A stretch of DNA of 5,643 nt from an archaeon. GTDB taxonomy: Archaea > Iainarchaeota > Iainarchaeia > Iainarchaeales > CSSED10-239. The translations under genes were made by a program, and so were the position numbers. The number at the start of each line of letters is the position of its first letter. Positions within the stretch are counted from its first letter, which is position 1. Under the pieces are notes generated by a model. It did not search any database. It saw only the letters and a list, made by a program, of their open reading frames with translations, and was not told the origin of the DNA. This document shows, in pieces, positions 3-5,643 of the stretch. Location: positions 28,177 through 33,819 of the forward strand of contig DAOOON010000009.1 of assembly GCA_035387745.1 (NCBI GenBank). The letters run 5' to 3'.

Positions 3-599
3 TCAAGTAATTTTACAGCTGAAGAAACAAGTTCAGTAAAGATAATGGTTGATGGTATCTCAAGTGAAACTATGTGTTTCAATTTCAATAATGGCTTTAT
101 GTTGTGGTACAATCCTCAAAAAACAACATTTAGTGTTGATGCCAATATGGCAACTACTGAAAACGCAACAGCGGGTACAGGGCAAGGTTCTATAAGTCCT
201 GCAACACCAACGCCAGCCACCGGCCCAGCACAACTAGCAATAACAGGCGGAAACTTTAATGTTAACACACCTATAGGGTCTGAACCTGCAAAAGTAACCG
301 GCGGTAATTTAACTTTAGATTTAGAAAATAAAAAATTAAGTGGAACTGTTAAATTTGAATCTGGAAATAAAACCGCAGAGGTTTCAATATCTAGTGGTAA
401 AGCAATAATAAGTGGCAACACAGTGCAATTAAATATCTCTGGTAAAGCGCTGGGATTTGATGTAACTGCATCTGGTAATTTAAATATTTCAGGTAATCAA
501 GGTATTGATGGAACCTATACAATTGTTTCTGGACAAAAGGCGTCATTAACAGGGCCAGTTTTAACATTAAGTAATTTAAATTTTACAAAAACAGCATAG
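3..599 (+). CDS. 3' portion of a secreted/surface beta-rich repeat protein (5'-truncated by the window edge; function unknown)
   Basis: Frame 3 is open from nt 3 (TCA AGT AAT TTT ACA ...) with no stop before the track's ATG at 45. ATG-45 has no GGAG/GGTG-type RBS in front of it, so the gene probably begins upstream of the window. It ends at TAG 597-599, with in-frame TAA at 603-605. The translation has a Pro/Thr/Ala/Gly linker (ATAGTGQGSISPATPTPATGPAQ). About 120 aa follow in which an (S/G)G(N/K/Q/T) turn motif recurs every 6-18 residues (ITGGNFNV, VTGGNLTL, ESGNKT, ISGNTVQL, ASGNLNISGNQG), which suggests a beta-solenoid or adhesin-like fold. I recognise no family. Confidence 0.7.
   Translation, partial: SSNFTAEETSSVKIMVDGISSETMCFNFNNGFMLWYNPQKTTFSVDANMATTENATAGTGQGSISPATPTPATGPAQLAITGGNFNVNTPIGSEPAKVTGGNLTLDLENKKLSGTVKFESGNKTAEVSISSGKAIISGNTVQLNISGKALGFDVTASGNLNISGNQGIDGTYTIVSGQKASLTGPVLTLSNLNFTKTA
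165..230 (+). other. Pro/Thr/Ala/Gly-rich interdomain linker inside the upstream CDS
   Basis: Codons 41-62 of the track ORF translate to ATAGTGQGSISPATPTPATGPA. The stretch is locally much more G+C-rich than its surroundings (gcgggtacagggcaaggt ... ccaacgccagccaccggcccagca). This is typical of a flexible linker between extracellular domains. Confidence 0.5.
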
Positions 600-650: not shown

Positions 651-3600
651 ATGGGATTAAAGAAATTCTATTATTCTATAGAAAATAAATGGTATGATTT
701 TGTTGAAAAAACAGGGTTGTATAAAGTAACAGATAAGATTGACAAATTTATGCCTTCTCTTATTTTCTTTATACTTCTAATAATAATGATAATTGCAGGA
801 ATCTTTTTATTACTGCCAATGATTAAAGGATCAGGAGATATAGAATTAACTTTTAAAGTAATGGATGAATTTGATGAGCCAGTCCCATTAGCGCCAGTTT
901 TAGTTACTACTTCCGATGACGCTTATAATCTTAAAACTAATGAAAACGGCTTAACTTCAAAAATTAGATTGCCATTCAATACTAAATATTCTGTAGATAT
1001 TGATTATTTTGGAAGTGATTATGAATCATATAGCGAAGAATTTGTCGCAGAATATGACGACGAAATAGATATTTATTTGTATAGTATTTCTGAAGAAACA
1101 ACTTCTACTTATTCTTTTACACTAGTCGATAGTCAAACAAGAATGCAAATAAATAAAACAGGAACAATTGAATTTATGTGTAGTAATTTTGGAGTCTTAC
1201 CACCAAATTCATTAACATTTAGTTCTGGTAATATAACAATTATTGCAGATAGTGATTGTCAATTGAAAGCAAAATCTATAATGATTGAAGGTTATGTTAC
1301 AAGAAACGACATATCCATAACCCAAAATATAGGCACAATTGATTTTGTTTCTAGTGATCCAATTGATTTTGAAGCAGTTTATCCTGTTTATGTAACAGTT
1401 CTTGGAGAAGACGGAAGTCCTCTTACTGGAATGAGAGCAGAATTATATACAAATGGTATTGCAGCGTATGGAAAAAACTGTACAACGACAGCTGGATCTT
1501 GTACAATATTAAGTGTAGATGCTGGCAGCTATGTTTTGAAAATAACAGACACAAGAGCAGTTCCAGAATATGGATTAGTTGAGGAATCAATAATTGTTTC
1601 AGGTATTACTCCAAAAACAATAAATATGACAAGAACAATTGCAGGATATATTCAAGTAAAAGTTAAGAGAACAAATAATCAAGCAATAGAAAACGCAGAA
1701 GTAAAATTAAAATATGGAGACAATATTATTTCTAGTGGGCACACTACAAATTCAAATGGTATTGTTAATGTACCAGTTTATGATTTAAGTAGAACATATA
1801 GAGTTGTGGCTTCAAAGGAAGGATATTTGGTTGGTTCAGCAAGTAACATTACTGCTTCTGAAAGCATTCCAACAAACCCAACAGTTACAATTACTTTACA
1901 ACAAATAACTCCACAAACAACAGCGACCGTAAAAGTAACTGTATTAGATAGTGTAACAGTAAAAGGTTTTAGTCACGCGCAAGTTGTTCTTTATGATTCA
2001 ACTACCGGATTTTTAACAGATTATGATTCGCAAATTACAAATTCTGATGGCAACTGTACATTTAGAGTCGCACCAGGCACATATTATGCTAAAGCATTTA
2101 AGGGTTCTTCTGAAGGCGTAAGTGAAGAATTTGAAGTAATTATCAGTAGCTCAACCGAAGAAGTAAATGTAATTATTCCAATAGAAGTAGTTAAAACATC
2201 AATAAATATTACTGTTGTGGATCATTATGGCGAGCCAGTACCAAGAGCAAACATTTTATTATTTGATAAATATAATTCTAGAAGAGCAATTTGGGGTGGG
2301 GATTTAGCAAATATAGACGGTACATTTTTAATATCTGATTTAGTTTCAGATTCAGAAGTTTATGCCGTAATTTCAGATATTGCAGATAATCTTGGTGCTA
2401 CTCAATCAGAGTACATATATCTAAAGGCAGACACAATAAATGAGTTAAAAGTAACGCTATATCCAAAACAAACAAGTCTTCAAAAACCAGAAATTAAATT
2501 TTTAGGTTTTTTTAATGATGTTGGAGAAAAACTAAATGGTTATTTAAAATCAGGCGCAGACTACAAAGCAAGATTTTTATTATTAATACCACAAGATAGA
2601 GACGGCAGAGACGAGTTTGAAGAAGTTGGGGCGGTTGTAAGAACTGGCTCTCCAAGCTCAGTTGCAAGCCCATATATGGAAAACGATAGTATCTATATAA
2701 GATCAATAAATCTACCAAACGCAGAAGTCACAAGATATACTCAGTATAGCTCTGAAAGTGGTTATGACGGTATTGATGATGTTGACACTTTAACTGAAGG
2801 AGACGCGAAATGGGCAAAGATTTTATTTAATGAAATTTATGGTTCCAATTATGCAAATGCTTATACCATTATGGCAGACGTAAAAGTAAAAGACACAGCA
2901 GTCTATGGCGAAGAAGTTGCAATCAATTATCTAGGTTATGGTTATACAGAAAATAACAGATATGAAACAGATCCAATAGATGACACACCAAATAGTAATG
3001 ATTTAGAATATATGACACAGAAAACAGAAAACTTTAATATTGGCGAAGAACAAGCATGTTCTGATGATTTCTGTTTTAATTTAAATATTATTAATCTTGA
3101 TGAGGACTTAAGAGAAGATGTTGTTGACAATTATACTGCTTCTCCAAATCAACATTATAAATTAAGATTTGGTTTAATCAATAATGACGCAGACACGGTC
3201 TATAATGTAAATTCAAGAATGCAAATTAAAAACGAAGACAAAGGCCTAAAGTTTAGTAGCATTAAGATAACTCAACCAAATGGTCAATTATTAACAACAA
3301 CTGCAAATGAGAATACTAGCGAATATGATATTTCAATAACTCAATTTAATCCACACACAAAGATATTAGGAGAGATTGATTTTATACCAGTTCTAAAAGG
3401 CGACAGAATATTTGATTTAACTTTTGTTTCTGATCAAAGAGTAATTTTTACAAAGCAAGTAGCAATACATGTGCTTTCTGATAAAACCTTTATAGTTAAG
3501 ATTACGCCGAATGTAATACCTTCAGGAAAGAACTTCAATCTTCAAGTTGAGGTTAAAGATGCAATCACAAATATCGAAGTTGATAAGCAAGTTAATGTTA

Positions 3601-5643
3601 GAGTAAAGGACAGATTCAAAAGAGATCTTTTGGCAAACCCAGTTCCAGTAGGAGCTTTAGGTATAGCTTCAGTAAATAATATTCCAGGCCAAGAACCAAA
3701 CAACAAAGTTTATGTTTATGTTGAGGCACAAGAGTATGAGACAAGTATAAGTGAGATAAAGATAACTGACGAGATCTTTGAGATCACTCCAACAAGACTT
3801 GGAGTATCCTTAAATATTAATACTAAGAAAACAGAAAATGCAAAGTTTACTATTGAAAATAGAAGCGAAAGCGAGTTAGTAATTGATTCTATTACCTTTA
3901 TGGGTAACGACAGTGAAATAGATGCAATAGATGTACAAAGAGTAAATAATTCGTTATTAGGATTTGTAGGCACAGAGATTCCTGGTGTTGATTCAAGTGA
4001 AAAGCCTGGCGCAGATAATTATAATAATAAACAAGAGATTACTGCAAGTTTCTTTACAAGCCCTAGAGCAAGCACAATAGATTCAACAAGAAACATCAGT
4101 TCTAAATTAGTAATTAAACTAAAAGATAAATATAATAAAGAGTATATCTGGGCAACAGAACTACCAGTAACATTAACTGTTGGTTATGAAGGGTTAATGG
4201 ACGATTCTCATTGTATGACTCTTTCAGAAGAGTCTTGGGAGACAACAGTAGTTGATAAATATGTAGAAAAGCAATTTACTTTTAAGAACAACTGCGGAGT
4301 TAATTCTAAACCAGTTCCATTAAATGGGGGTCTTTCTGCTAAAGTTGAGTATGAAGGCAGTAGTCCTTTAGGGGTATTTACAGTTAATGTTGGTAACAGA
4401 TTAGTGGAGTTATCACATGGCTATTATAAGAACATCTATGACTCTGTGGATTCTGAAAAGCAACACAACGTTGTTTTAAAATATACTCCTGTTGGTAGAT
4501 TTACAGGAGACATAAAAGGAAAGATTATTTTTAGATCATTAAATGACACAGGCTCTGGTGCTCAAGAATTAATAAGCGAATATAAGTTTGTATTACATGT
4601 AATAAGCTTAAAAGACTGTTATGCGGTCTCAAAGAAAGTCTTAACAGCAAAAGATACTGGCGAGCCAGACGCCTTTGTAATTGAGAACAAAGGTTGTGGT
4701 TCAGAGATAACTTATCGTTTATCTTGTGATGACTGTACGGGCTTAGTATTAAATCCAAAAGAAAACATAGTAGTTCCAGCTACCGGATCAAGTGAAGAGA
4801 TAAAAGTTATGTCTCAGGGTGCAATGCCAGGAATTTATCTATTAAATGTATATTCAAAGGTAAGTGGAGCAAGAGGCTCAGAAAGAAATGTTGGAAAAGT
4901 AAGAGTAGAAGTAAGGCCAACGACACAATGTATTGATCTTGATAGATACGAGTATGATTTATACAGATATGAATTTTCAGACACAGGAAATCCAACAAAA
5001 GCAAAGAGTTACGATATTGGTAACATTATCAATAAATGTTACGGTCAAGACGTAAACGTTTTAGGAAAAATGAAGAAAGACGCCATCTGGAAGATGGCCC
5101 TATGGAATGGCCTAAGAGATGGTCTATTCACCTGGGGTGTCTCTTCTTTAATAAAGAATTTTGAAGAAGTTACTAAAAATATAAAATCAATAACCTCATC
5201 TGTTTTAGCTACAGTTGCTAAAGATTATACAAACTCAACACCTGCTCAAAAAACTGATGCTCTAATGAATGAATTAAATAAAATAGACAAAGAATTAGAT
5301 AAATATTTAAAATACTTAGATAATCCAAAAATTAAGTCCAAAGAAAAGACAAATATTAAGAATGCTGTAACTGACCTTGAATCGGGTCTTGGTAAATTAA
5401 AAGCAAAATTCCCAGATCAAGCAGGAATTGCGCCTGCAAATGCTTTGGTTGCAGAAATAGAAAACAAAATTACAGAAATTAAAGAAAAGCTAAGGGATAA
5501 TTCTAAAGAGCCAGAATGTTCTACAACAAAACTATGTACTGATACTACAAAAGAATGTAAAGATGGTGTTTGTGTAGCAAAGTCAGCTGAGCCAGAATGT
5601 TCTACAACAAAACTATGTACTGATACTACAAAAGAATGTAAAG
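651..5643 (+). CDS. Giant membrane-anchored multi-domain cell-surface protein (3'-truncated by the window; more than 1,664 aa; putative adhesin or S-layer-associated mega-protein)
   Basis: I translated this frame by hand. ATG 651 is the only start possible, because in-frame TAA at 636-638 closes the frame just upstream. I saw no TAA/TAG/TGA in frame up to nt 5643, and I re-verified the phase at 2520, 3000, 4200, 5100 and 5508. In DNA this AT-rich a random frame should close within a few dozen codons at most; the longest minus-strand ORF is 101 aa. The translation is protein-like throughout, with an RBS, a signal anchor, recurring beta-sandwich motifs, paired Cys and many N-x-S/T sequons. Codon bias is consistent (Arg almost always AGA; Ile ATA/ATT; Leu TTA). 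The ORF is missing from the supplied track, presumably because it has no in-window stop. Confidence 0.93.
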   Translation, partial: MGLKKFYYSIENKWYDFVEKTGLYKVTDKIDKFMPSLIFFILLIIMIIAGIFLLLPMIKGSGDIELTFKVMDEFDEPVPLAPVLVTTSDDAYNLKTNENGLTSKIRLPFNTKYSVDIDYFGSDYESYSEEFVAEYDDEIDIYLYSISEETTSTYSFTLVDSQTRMQINKTGTIEFMCSNFGVLPPNSLTFSSGNITIIADSDCQLKAKSIMIEGYVTRNDISITQNIGTIDFVSSDPIDFEAVYPVYVTVLGEDGSPLTGMRAELYTNGIAAYGKNCTTTAGSCTILSVDAGSYVLKITDTRAVPEYGLVEESIIVSGITPKTINMTRTIAGYIQVKVKRTNNQAIENAEVKLKYGDNIISSGHTTNSNGIVNVPVYDLSRTYRVVASKEGYLVGSASNITASESIPTNPTVTITLQQITPQTTATVKVTVLDSVTVKGFSHAQVVLYDSTTGFLTDYDSQITNSDGNCTFRVAPGTYYAKAFKGSSEGVSEEFEVIISSSTEEVNVIIPIEVVKTSINITVVDHYGEPVPRANILLFDKYNSRRAIWGGDLANIDGTFLISDLVSDSEVYAVISDIADNLGATQSEYIYLKADTINELKVTLYPKQTSLQKPEIKFLGFFNDVGEKLNGYLKSGADYKARFLLLIPQDRDGRDEFEEVGAVVRTGSPSSVASPYMENDSIYIRSINLPNAEVTRYTQYSSESGYDGIDDVDTLTEGDAKWAKILFNEIYGSNYANAYTIMADVKVKDTAVYGEEVAINYLGYGYTENNRYETDPIDDTPNSNDLEYMTQKTENFNIGEEQACSDDFCFNLNIINLDEDLREDVVDNYTASPNQHYKLRFGLINNDADTVYNVNSRMQIKNEDKGLKFSSIKITQPNGQLLTTTANENTSEYDISITQFNPHTKILGEIDFIPVLKGDRIFDLTFVSDQRVIFTKQVAIHVLSDKTFIVKITPNVIPSGKNFNLQVEVKDAITNIEVDKQVNVRVKDRFKRDLLANPVPVGALGIASVNNIPGQEPNNKVYVYVEAQEYETSISEIKITDEIFEITPTRLGVSLNINTKKTENAKFTIENRSESELVIDSITFMGNDSEIDAIDVQRVNNSLLGFVGTEIPGVDSSEKPGADNYNNKQEITASFFTSPRASTIDSTRNISSKLVIKLKDKYNKEYIWATELPVTLTVGYEGLMDDSHCMTLSEESWETTVVDKYVEKQFTFKNNCGVNSKPVPLNGGLSAKVEYEGSSPLGVFTVNVGNRLVELSHGYYKNIYDSVDSEKQHNVVLKYTPVGRFTGDIKGKIIFRSLNDTGSGAQELISEYKFVLHVISLKDCYAVSKKVLTAKDTGEPDAFVIENKGCGSEITYRLSCDDCTGLVLNPKENIVVPATGSSEEIKVMSQGAMPGIYLLNVYSKVSGARGSERNVGKVRVEVRPTTQCIDLDRYEYDLYRYEFSDTGNPTKAKSYDIGNIINKCYGQDVNVLGKMKKDAIWKMALWNGLRDGLFTWGVSSLIKNFEEVTKNIKSITSSVLATVAKDYTNSTPAQKTDALMNELNKIDKELDKYLKYLDNPKIKSKEKTNIKNAVTDLESGLGKLKAKFPDQAGIAPANALVAEIENKITEIKEKLRDNSKEPECSTTKLCTDTTKECKDGVCVAKSAEPECSTTKLCTDTTKECK
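753..824 (+). other. N-terminal transmembrane signal anchor of the giant protein
   Basis: Residues 35-58 (PSLIFFILLIIMIIAGIFLLLPMI) form an uninterrupted hydrophobic stretch. A 34-aa charged, aromatic N-terminal segment precedes it (MGLKKFYYSIENKWYDFVEKTGLYKVTDKIDKFM). That n-region is too long for a classical cleavable Sec signal peptide. It therefore looks like a type-II-style anchor with the bulk of the protein outside the cell. Confidence 0.75.
837..2462 (+). repeat. Array of about six diverged ~85-aa transthyretin/CarboxypepD_reg-like (PEGA-like) beta-sandwich modules (protein-level repeats only)
   Basis: A pattern recurs about every 85-90 aa: h-x-h-x-V-x-D ... G-x-P-h ... A-x-V-x-L ... 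T-(N/D)-x-(N/D)-G-x-h-x-h ... G-x-Y-x-h-x-h ... G-Y/F. Examples are IELTFKVMDEFDEPVPLAPVLV..NENGLTS; VYVTVLGEDGSPLTGMRAELY..AGSCTILSVDAGSYVLKI; IQVKVKRTNNQAIENAEVKLKY..NSNGIVNVPVYDLSRTYRVVASKEGY; VKVTVLDSVTVKGFSHAQVVLYD..NSDGNCTFRVAPGTYYAKAFK; INITVVDHYGEPVPRANILLFD..NIDGTFLISDLVSDSEVYAVISD. Module 2 (aa 154-236) is the least canonical. The family assignment comes from motif memory, not from a search. Confidence 0.55.
3786..4919 (+). other. Three consecutive Ig-like beta-sandwich modules with an F-x-(I/F)-x-N strand (CARDB/ASH/PapD-like pattern)
   Basis: Approximate modules are 3786-4190, 4212-4607 and 4617-4919. Each has an early strand of the form AKFTIENRSESELVI, KQFTFKNNCGVNSKPV or DAFVIENKGCGSEITY. 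Each ends in an alternating hydrophobic strand (VTLTVGY, KFVLHVIS, VRVEVRP). Cysteines are placed at module boundaries (C1188, C1215, C1323, C1349, C1359, C1362, C1427). Boundaries are approximate. Confidence 0.45.
5070..5150 (+). other. Trp-rich amphipathic/hydrophobic segment
   Basis: Residues 1474-1500 read MKKDAIWKMALWNGLRDGLFTWGVSSL, with 3 Trp in 17 residues and hydrophobic runs interrupted by R and D. It is not a clean transmembrane helix and looks more like an interfacial or membrane-interacting helix. Confidence 0.35.
5151..5504 (+). other. Predicted alpha-helical (coiled-coil-like) stalk
   Basis: Residues 1501-1618 are K/E/L/N-rich with heptad-like stretches (TDALMNELNKIDKELDKYLKYL, AVTDLESGLGKLKAKF, ALVAEIENKITEIKEKLRD). 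This contrasts sharply with the beta-type composition of the preceding ~1,400 aa. Confidence 0.45.
5508..5643 (+). repeat. Nucleotide-perfect in-frame 81-bp tandem repeat encoding a 27-aa four-Cys module (array truncated by the window end)
   Basis: nt 5508-5562 and nt 5589-5643 are identical at 55 of 55 positions (GAGCCAGAATGTTCTACAACAAAACTATGTACTGATACTACAAAAGAATGTAAAG). The period is 81 nt, or 27 codons, and 5508 is a first codon position of the giant ORF. The unit is EPECSTTKLCTDTTKECKDGVCVAKSA. Confidence 0.95.

Follow-up and report, generated by a model that had tools for sequence, protein, structure and literature searches.

Evidence for an in-frame tandem duplication of a four-cysteine module in the variable tail of a giant surface protein of Iainarchaeota

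Introduction

In-frame variable-number tandem repeats are a general class of feature in microbial surface proteins and adhesins. Here we analyze a candidate member of that class, an 81-bp unit with four cysteine codons that appears twice near the 3' end of a very large surface-protein gene on a 5,643-nucleotide (nt) stretch of DNA from an archaeon of the Iainarchaeota (GenBank assembly GCA_035387745.1, contig DAOOON010000009.1, positions 28,177 to 33,819). This whole stretch is referred to below as the window. Like other surface-protein and adhesin repeats, the unit lies in frame and in an exposed part of the protein, and the arrays of sister lineages vary in copy number between near-identical strains and break short-read assemblies. 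It differs from them in the small number of documented copies (two), in consisting of a cysteine module predicted to fold and not of a low-complexity linker, and in its DPANN host.

A second described system is that of Borgs, extrachromosomal elements of Methanoperedens, to which a preliminary description of the window had hypothetically linked the repeat. A Borg repeat is defined by three or more perfect units in a region that spans at least 50 nt; such repeats are scattered through the genome in both genic and intergenic positions, and the amino acid repeats that they encode are commonly intrinsically disordered (Schoelmerich et al. 2023, PMC9879509). The window has in common with them a perfect nucleotide repeat, a unit length divisible by three, an extracellular or membrane protein as carrier, and an A-rich coding strand. 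Unlike them, it does not belong to a Borg genome, its repeat has two units that are confined to the tail of one gene, and the unit is rich in cysteine and predicted to be folded.

The closest named domains are DUF7107 (PF23416), Ldl_recept_a (PF00057), and the EB module (PF01683), all of them small extracellular modules rich in cysteine. Tails of proteins orthologous to the one in the window carry similar modules, with the spacing C-x5-C-x5-C-x4-C. The tail of one orthologue (P0008) passes the thresholds of both DUF7107 (32.8 versus 24.6 bits) and Ldl_recept_a (26.0 versus 24.1 bits), and another orthologue is named "EB domain-containing protein" by NCBI. The module in the window, in contrast, falls below every cutoff.

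Results

A perfect repeat in frame

The favored explanation, to which we assign a probability of about 75%, is that an 81-bp four-cysteine unit at the end of the window has truly been duplicated, in tandem and in frame, in the distal, variable tail of an Iainarchaeota surface protein, and that the repeat itself caused the truncation of the contig. Positions 5508 to 5562 and 5589 to 5643 are identical at 55 of 55 nt, the start-to-start period is 81 nt, and no extension of the identity was found leftward of 5508. As the preliminary description had claimed, the repeat is aligned with the codons of the open reading frame (ORF), which spans 651 to 5642. It starts at codon 1620 counted from the ATG at 651 (5508 minus 651, divided by 3, is 1619). 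The unit encodes 27 residues, EPECSTTKLCTDTTKECKDGVCVAKSA, with the cysteine spacing C-x5-C-x6-C-x4-C, and the junction between the two units reads ...GCAAAGTCAGCT/GAGCCAGAA....

A repeat of this length is far beyond chance expectation: when the window was shuffled 30 times, no exact direct repeat was longer than 16 nt, and the longest one per shuffle averaged 13 nt. Among the other direct repeats within the window, none exceeded 29 nt at 76% identity. Tandem Repeats Finder (TRF) reported no strong repeat in the window, missing the 81-nt repeat because fewer than two copies are visible there.

An assembly that crosses the repeat

A MEGAHIT contig from another sample (k141_517726 of ERZ27257431, 5,785 nt; L002) runs through the repeat. 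It is 99.75% identical to the window, with 13 mismatches in 5,269 nt, and TRF finds in it 2.0 copies of an 81-nt unit (score, 313). The second copy is perfect over 75 nt and matches at 78 of 81 positions overall, its last 6 nt differing at three positions (TCAGCT versus ACAGTA), so that the copy count in L002 is approximately 1.9 to 2.0, and there is no long array. After copy 2, the protein continues with TVTTVYPTYY..., and the frame goes on through TVTTVYPTYYLASSNNGTRAC...GCVCV...ICGPRKD to a stop codon. The complete protein (P0018) has 1,754 residues and ends in a terminal domain of 83 residues with six cysteines. The two-unit form implies the junctions upstream-unit, unit-TCAGCT-unit, and unit-ACAGTAACT. 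A k-mer of 141 resolves an exact repeat of 75 nt, but three perfect copies, which amount to an exact repeat of approximately 156 nt, should branch the assembly graph. L002 reads through unbranched at k=141, and two units are therefore the best estimate of copy number, judging from the behavior of the assembler. With respect to the units expected downstream, the second copy was recovered in L002, and none was present beyond it there.

The 13 mismatches of L002 to the window are all clustered in a 206-nt segment (positions 4381 to 4586), and the other approximately 5,060 compared nucleotides contain none. This patch looks like a short imported recombination tract; with the L003 lineage, a close relative described below, tested as donor, the counts were 29 versus 34 mismatches.

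The end of the contig

The window is an entire assembled contig, listed as NODE_17577_length_5643_cov_13.04 in ENA ERZ761564, a name in the SPAdes style, and it terminates exactly 55 nt into copy 2. The default largest k-mer of SPAdes and metaSPAdes is 55. An exact repeat longer than k creates a loop in the de Bruijn graph, and if a contig stops on the edge that forms this loop, its end carries an overlap of length k. A sister scaffold (L006, NODE_5960, SPAdes) has a 100-N gap after exactly 55 nt of the second copy of its own 84-nt repeat. At NCBI, HOZ35779.1, annotated as "partial," exactly matches the protein of the window ORF, and the locus tag that follows, on a shared scaffold of 34,349 nt, denotes a second "partial" protein, of 89 residues, that starts with GVCVAKTVTT.... 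The occurrence of two such fragments in succession on one scaffold indicates that the scaffold gap sits at the repeat. The truncation of the contig is most likely a by-product of the repeat, with the 75-nt exact repeat looping a graph that was presumably built at k=55: the contig ends at the window edge because the assembler failed to cross the repeat. The original picture of an array cut by the window edge was consequently overstated, as the only crossing assembly has two copies followed by the terminal domain.

The number 55 also raises the suspicion that the second copy is purely an artifact of the assembler, a spurious k-mer overlap, and that the genome holds one module. The visible part of copy 2 is exactly one SPAdes k-mer long and stands at the very end of the contig. 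We regard this as extremely unlikely. A different assembler, working on a different sample, gives a complete copy 2 with its own exit sequence and a frame that leads into a conserved terminal domain, and both assemblies contain the 6-nt junction TCAGCT. Furthermore, the downstream NCBI fragment begins inside a module (GVCVAK), consistent with a second copy.

Identity within and divergence between lineages

The L006 orthologue carries, at the equivalent position, a homologous module of 28 residues (GCTSDTDCKDTTKPKCIDNVCSVAPATG) that is likewise duplicated. Within each lineage the copies match perfectly in DNA, over a stretch of 75 nt for the window lineage and of at least 55 nt for L006. Units aligned across the two lineages are only approximately 60% identical as judged by eye. 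Copies that are identical within lineages and diverged between them point to concerted evolution or to independent recent duplications, and the initial proposal that the copies are young or actively homogenized is supported by the perfect duplicate that L006 has of its own. In both lineages, the exact identity stops 6 to 7 nt before the full period. These period-end differences could possibly stem from an older duplication with gene conversion acting on the core of the unit or from an array that formed with a partial terminal unit.

Several observations weigh against the duplication as we have presented it. A fresh duplication followed by random mutation is unlikely to produce three differences within 6 nt when the other 75 nt have none. 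The count of two copies comes from a single assembly, L002. No copy-number polymorphism was seen at the array itself, for which there are two assemblies of the lineage, one of them crossing. Foldseek searches with both structural models of the module region, described below, found no significant structural relative, and the two-module model had none in the PDB at E < 2. Finally, a MEGAHIT contig of a sister lineage (L022) has one copy of a 24-residue module that is present in five copies in other assemblies, which indicates that assemblers can undercount repeat units.

The last of these observations also bears on the main competing explanation, in which the array has at least three units or is polymorphic in the sampled population, a true variable-number repeat of which L002 is a collapsed or minority version. 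The flanks of the one-copy and five-copy sister arrays are identical, the SPAdes contig broke and did not traverse a simple loop once, the NCBI scaffold has its gap at the repeat, and it is documented (PMC9879509) that assemblies can collapse tandem repeats and that contigs can end at them. Searches for other assemblies of the lineage returned none: an exact DNA search with the unit found it absent from the viral collection and from the Joint Genome Institute (JGI) metagenome contigs, a word-indexed protein search with the full tail matched a single partial protein, via the terminal domain, and yielded no further copies from the lineage, and an exact look-up of the downstream NCBI fragment (P0017) matched no record. 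The graph argument made above also speaks against a longer array, in that L002 passes through the repeat between unique flanks at a k-mer size that approximately 156 nt of exact repeat would exceed. A longer or polymorphic array is, in our judgment, unlikely, and a two-unit array remains the preferred explanation. The suggestion that the repeat varies in copy number agrees with the equivalent tail arrays of orthologues, which do differ between assemblies, perhaps in part through assembly collapse; for the array of the window lineage itself, which a single assembly crosses, it may or may not hold.

A four-cysteine module found in bacteria and archaea

The module was said at the outset to lack a named family, and database searches bear this out. 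The best Pfam score was with Ldl_recept_a, at 18.4 bits for an artificial four-copy construct and 8.2 bits for the native tail against a cutoff of 24.1, and Pfam gave no DUF7107, EB, or EGF match. An NCBIfam search and sequence and profile searches of the PDB gave none, and nothing scored in a word-indexed protein search with a profile of the module (A3). A BmKX toxin match (to the 24-residue array of L005), CAMSAP_CH, and Nodulin were rejected as being below cutoff or artifacts of a cysteine pattern summed over repeats.

A phmmer search with window positions 5508 to 5642 against 1.84 billion representative proteins retrieved six proteins (P0028 to P0033), with E values from 2.7e-40 to 4.9e-5. 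Each has 4 to 9 matched stretches, showing 42 to 58% identity to the unit pair, and all six carry 2 to 7 tandem units of 27 to 28 residues with the pattern xEPECSxxKPCxDxxKxC(x)xxGxCVxK. From these proteins we defined an otherwise unnamed four-cysteine family, here called EPEC, by the spacing C-x5-C-x6-C-x4/5-C, the motif E-P-E-C-S ... C-V-x-K, and a tandem arrangement. The window module, xEPECSxxKxCxDxxKxCxxGxCVxK, conforms in all of these respects, and P3, C5, C11, C18, C23, and V24 are invariant in the aligned units. Five of the six proteins begin with a lipoprotein-type signal peptide, and the sixth (P0029) begins inside the array. One of the six (NCBI MBQ9817850.1) is encoded in a bacterial metagenome-assembled genome (MAG), GCA_017441205.1, with a G+C content of 50%. 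A neighboring gene encodes pyruvate phosphate dikinase, and at the DNA level the array repeats every 81/84 nt with 86% identity between copies.

The bacterial proteins thus resemble the window protein in the unit of 27 to 28 residues, the cysteine spacing and motif, the head-to-tail arrangement, and the period of 81/84 nt. They differ in being lipoprotein-type proteins of 455 to 1,008 residues with 2 to 7 diverged copies (approximately 86% identical DNA in P0028), whereas the window lineage has two DNA-identical copies at the end of an archaeal protein of 1,754 residues. To judge from these sequences, the 27-codon period is the natural unit of an unannotated repeat family common to bacteria and DPANN archaea. 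The 90%-identity cluster of P0028 has members labeled "Proteobacteria bacterium" and "Spirochaetales bacterium" in different MAGs, and with such conflicting labels, the taxonomic origin of the bacterial carriers is uncertain. In GCA_017441205.1, the gene adjoining the EPEC lipoprotein gene contains another cysteine-containing array (L041, 3108 to 3694), with a period of 126 nt, 3.6 to 4.7 copies, and 82 to 88% identity.

Supplied with 19 aligned two-unit segments, AlphaFold2 modeled the module pair with a mean predicted local distance difference test (pLDDT) score of 84.2 and a predicted template modeling (pTM) score of 0.40. In each modeled unit, an irregular loop on the N-terminal side leads into a beta-hairpin around a D-G turn; the low pTM means that the relative orientation of the two units is undefined. 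A model of the last 142 residues, made without an alignment, was mediocre (pLDDT, 65). The module is probably stapled by disulfides. One could instead imagine that the four cysteines bind a metal, as in a zinc or iron knuckle, and that the tail is redox or metal dependent. Four invariant cysteines per unit would suit such a site, and the organism is probably anaerobic, a setting in which extracellular disulfides are less obviously favored. The spacing C-x5-C-x6-C-x4-C, however, has none of the CxxC knuckles of zinc ribbons and rubredoxins, and the module is found in bacterial proteins that are secreted or resemble lipoproteins and, here, beyond a membrane anchor. Metal binding is for these reasons very unlikely. 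The nonsignificant Foldseek neighbors, a mixture of disulfide-rich extracellular repeats and zinc-binding LIM domains, fail to discriminate between the two.

The tail as a hotspot for repeats

The array lies in a tail that follows the conserved core of the protein, and this tail is a hotspot for in-frame tandem repeats. In a TRF analysis of 22 loci, not all of them independent, totaling 294 kb (score threshold, 80 or more), 12 of 13 strong arrays fell in tails, which account for 5.6% of the total length (binomial P, approximately 1e-14). The periods of all strong arrays are divisible by 3, and none of the arrays is intergenic. The units are diverse in length and sequence (Table 1). Assemblies break in these arrays: L003, L005, and L006 have 100-N gaps there, and four contigs (L023, L024, L027, and L029) end inside them.

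In two instances, copy number differs between assemblies that are otherwise nearly the same. The 24-residue module has five copies in L026 and one in L022, with flanks that are 100% identical upstream (6,222 nt) and 99.7% identical downstream, although this difference could also be due to assembly collapse. L025 (P0023) has two more TEPPA units than L009 (P0005), with flanks 100% and 99.9% identical. The KEPDPN array of the L003 lineage, whose core is 87% identical to that of the window (L003 4738 to 4947, L023 7588 to 7660, L024 7588 to 7720, and P0027), is unresolved in every assembly seen: it coincides with a 100-N gap, contigs of 254 and 293 kb end within it, and an NCBI "partial" protein begins just after it.

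The tails also appear to have been exchanged between lineages, as far as can be read from the sequences. The cores of L003 and P0002, compared over 1,505 residues, are 98% identical, but their tails are unrelated and their terminal domains are of different subtypes (31% identity). The window core is closest to that of L003 (87%), while the only lineage to share the window's spacer and module is L006, which is more distant (69%), and the window's terminal domain groups with those of L003 and P0027 (67 to 71%) and not with that of L006 (36%). Immediately 5' of the array, a tract of approximately 88 nt (window 5397 to 5484; L006, approximately 12226 to 12313) that encodes KAKFPDQAGIAPANALVAEIENKITEIK is 96% identical in DNA to L006. 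This is the highest-scoring 90-nt window along the gene in the comparison with L006 (mean, 74%; standard deviation, 9%), the proteins being 69% identical overall, and the tract may reflect recent recombination or be under constraint.

An Iainarchaeota gene and not a Borg gene

A scan of one genome per species gave 19 loci of the gene. Among the genomes that carry them are MAGs named Candidatus Iainarchaeum, Ca. Diapherotrites, and "Candidatus ainarchaeum," a 671-kb Ca. Iainarchaeum contig, and the complete chromosome (CP045477.1, 839,632 bp) of Ca. Forterrea multitransposorum (Iainarchaeota, kingdom Nanobdellati, DPANN). The protein is a surface protein of approximately 1,750 residues that is conserved in the Iainarchaeota. 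The G+C content is 32.5% in the window and 24 to 34% in related loci; with the related loci equally low, a low G+C content and an A-rich coding strand are normal for the lineage. A transfer RNA scan of nine related loci found none. A contig of 3.2 kb (L017, CAYJAI010000057.1) in a MAG labeled "uncultured Christensenella sp." encodes an orthologue 39% identical over residues 1 to 1085 and is probably misbinned.

These data leave a virtually negligible chance that the repeat is of the Borg type and sits on a Borg or Borg-like Methanoperedens extrachromosomal element. The resemblances that prompted the idea exist: the low G+C content, a coding-strand composition of A>T>G>C (38.6/29.2/18.4/13.9%) near reported Borg values, genes on a single strand, and a perfect in-frame repeat in a surface protein. 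The Borg-like base composition, however, results from a low-G+C genome with purine-rich coding strands, and orthologues with shared neighbors are found on Iainarchaeota genomes, including the complete 840-kb chromosome. A Borg-like spread of repeats was not seen either, as the window has no other strong tandem repeat and the related loci have almost none outside the tail. The resolved form, with two units, is below the minimum of three, and the unit is rich in cysteine and predicted to fold, whereas Borg repeats are mostly disordered. The Borg link was therefore abandoned.

The giant surface protein and its neighbors

The attribution of the ORF to a surface protein in the preliminary description is supported. 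Pfam identified CarboxypepD_reg in the window ORF at 58.8 bits (cutoff, 32.3), and the protein has the features of its orthologue group (P0001 to P0015), namely, an N-terminal segment with a transmembrane anchor, CarboxypepD_reg, and a core that ends in GLRDGLF. Residues 1 to 35 are highly conserved, with M34, P35, S36, and many earlier residues invariant in 16 orthologues. Core identity to orthologues is 40 to 87%, and there are 15 full-length homologues at 40 to 83% identity. The core of approximately 1,486 residues ends at GLRDGLF (residue approximately 1487), beyond which conservation collapses in both the alignment consensus and the tails. In the window lineage, the tail consists of a Lys/Glu-rich spacer of approximately 130 residues, the two modules, and the terminal domain. 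Of the other tails, only that of L006 is collinear with the spacer, which has only weak matches of the coiled-coil type (Dynamitin, residues 1522 to 1623; SMC-related ASRP, 1533 to 1622). The N terminus is likely to be inside and the remainder outside. With the anchor at the N-terminal end, no part of the protein should lie farther from the membrane than the tail.

Upstream, the window holds the end of a paralogous gene (Table 1), which is 46% identical to the C terminus of a 2,563-residue ORF located 5' of the L005 orthologue. That ORF shares the N-terminal "MGLKEFYYSLEDKY..." anchor, followed by a transmembrane segment. In the loci examined, the upstream paralogue has 2,341 to 2,563 residues and an N-terminal "MGLK.FYYS.E.KY" segment before a transmembrane helix (L005 2265 to 9956; L006 402 to 7427). 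The downstream gene encodes a secreted protein of approximately 975 to 987 residues, and the gene 3' of that for P0018 on L002 encodes a protein with a signal peptide. The same neighboring genes were present in the loci checked (L002, L003, L005, and L006). In the examined Iainarchaeota loci, the genes for the paralogue, the surface protein, and the secreted protein thus make up a cluster of three that encodes large surface proteins.

Table 1. Features of the window and repeat units of the tail arrays
Feature	Position in window	Strand	Unit length (nt)	Description
Upstream gene, 3' end	3..599	+		C-terminal 198 residues of a paralogous giant surface protein; ORF open at left edge
Giant surface-protein ORF	651..5642	+		1,664 codons visible, no stop in window; full length, 1,754 residues
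N-terminal transmembrane anchor	756..824	+		Residues 36-58, SLIFFILLIIMIIAGIFLLLPMI, after conserved 35-residue segment
Best-scoring CarboxypepD_reg (Ig-like beta-sandwich) domain	1650..1898	+		Residues 334-416, one of three matched stretches
Start of hypervariable tail, Lys/Glu-rich spacer	5109..5507	+		Directly after GLRDGLF (residue 1487); probably helical
Repeat unit 1	5508..5588	+	81	27 residues, EPECSTTKLCTDTTKECKDGVCVAKSA, four-Cys EPEC module
Repeat unit 2, first 55 nt	5589..5643	+		55/55 identical to unit 1; contig end at 5643
Window/L002 array			81	Cys module
L006 array			84	Cys module
L005/L026 array			72	24-residue Cys module (VCTPACSDTHECVNGACQLKVAAN)
L003/L023/L024 array			18	KEPDPN
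L009/L025 array			15	TEPSA/TEPPA
L013 array			15	TPEDE
L028 array			15	GTGTG
L039 array			30	

Discussion

The duplication itself is ordinary, a young or homogenized repeat in the variable tail of a surface protein. Repeats of this in-frame kind are common in the exposed regions of surface proteins, and they routinely break short-read assemblies. With orthologues of the gene located on Iainarchaeota genomes, the tempting Borg reading is removed.

We envisage that the tail cassette gains and loses in-frame repeats, presumably by replication slippage or unequal recombination, that gene conversion would keep the copies identical, and that the cassette may be swapped between lineages. The module pair would most likely act as a stiff spacer, setting the reach and presentation of the terminal cysteine-rich domain at the outermost tip, and the length of that spacer would be adjustable through slippage or recombination. 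The tip could serve in contact with other cells or with a substrate, or it could be a target of phage or host recognition. More tentatively, and with doubts that exceed our confidence, the tail may be a dedicated diversification region of the Iainarchaeota, in which cassette swaps combine with repeat expansion, contraction, and homogenization, including that of folded four-cysteine modules with relatives in bacterial lipoprotein-like proteins. The outermost tip would then be varied for contact with a host or partner or for evasion of phages, as an archaeal counterpart of antigenic or contingency variation.

The repeat-prone tail explains the fragmentation of this gene in many MAGs. The unannotated four-cysteine module of 27 to 28 residues, found in bacteria and in DPANN archaea, could join the domain databases. 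For the biology of these small and poorly understood archaea, the mosaic, repeat-prone tail is a candidate for the surface that makes contact with a host or is exposed to phages.

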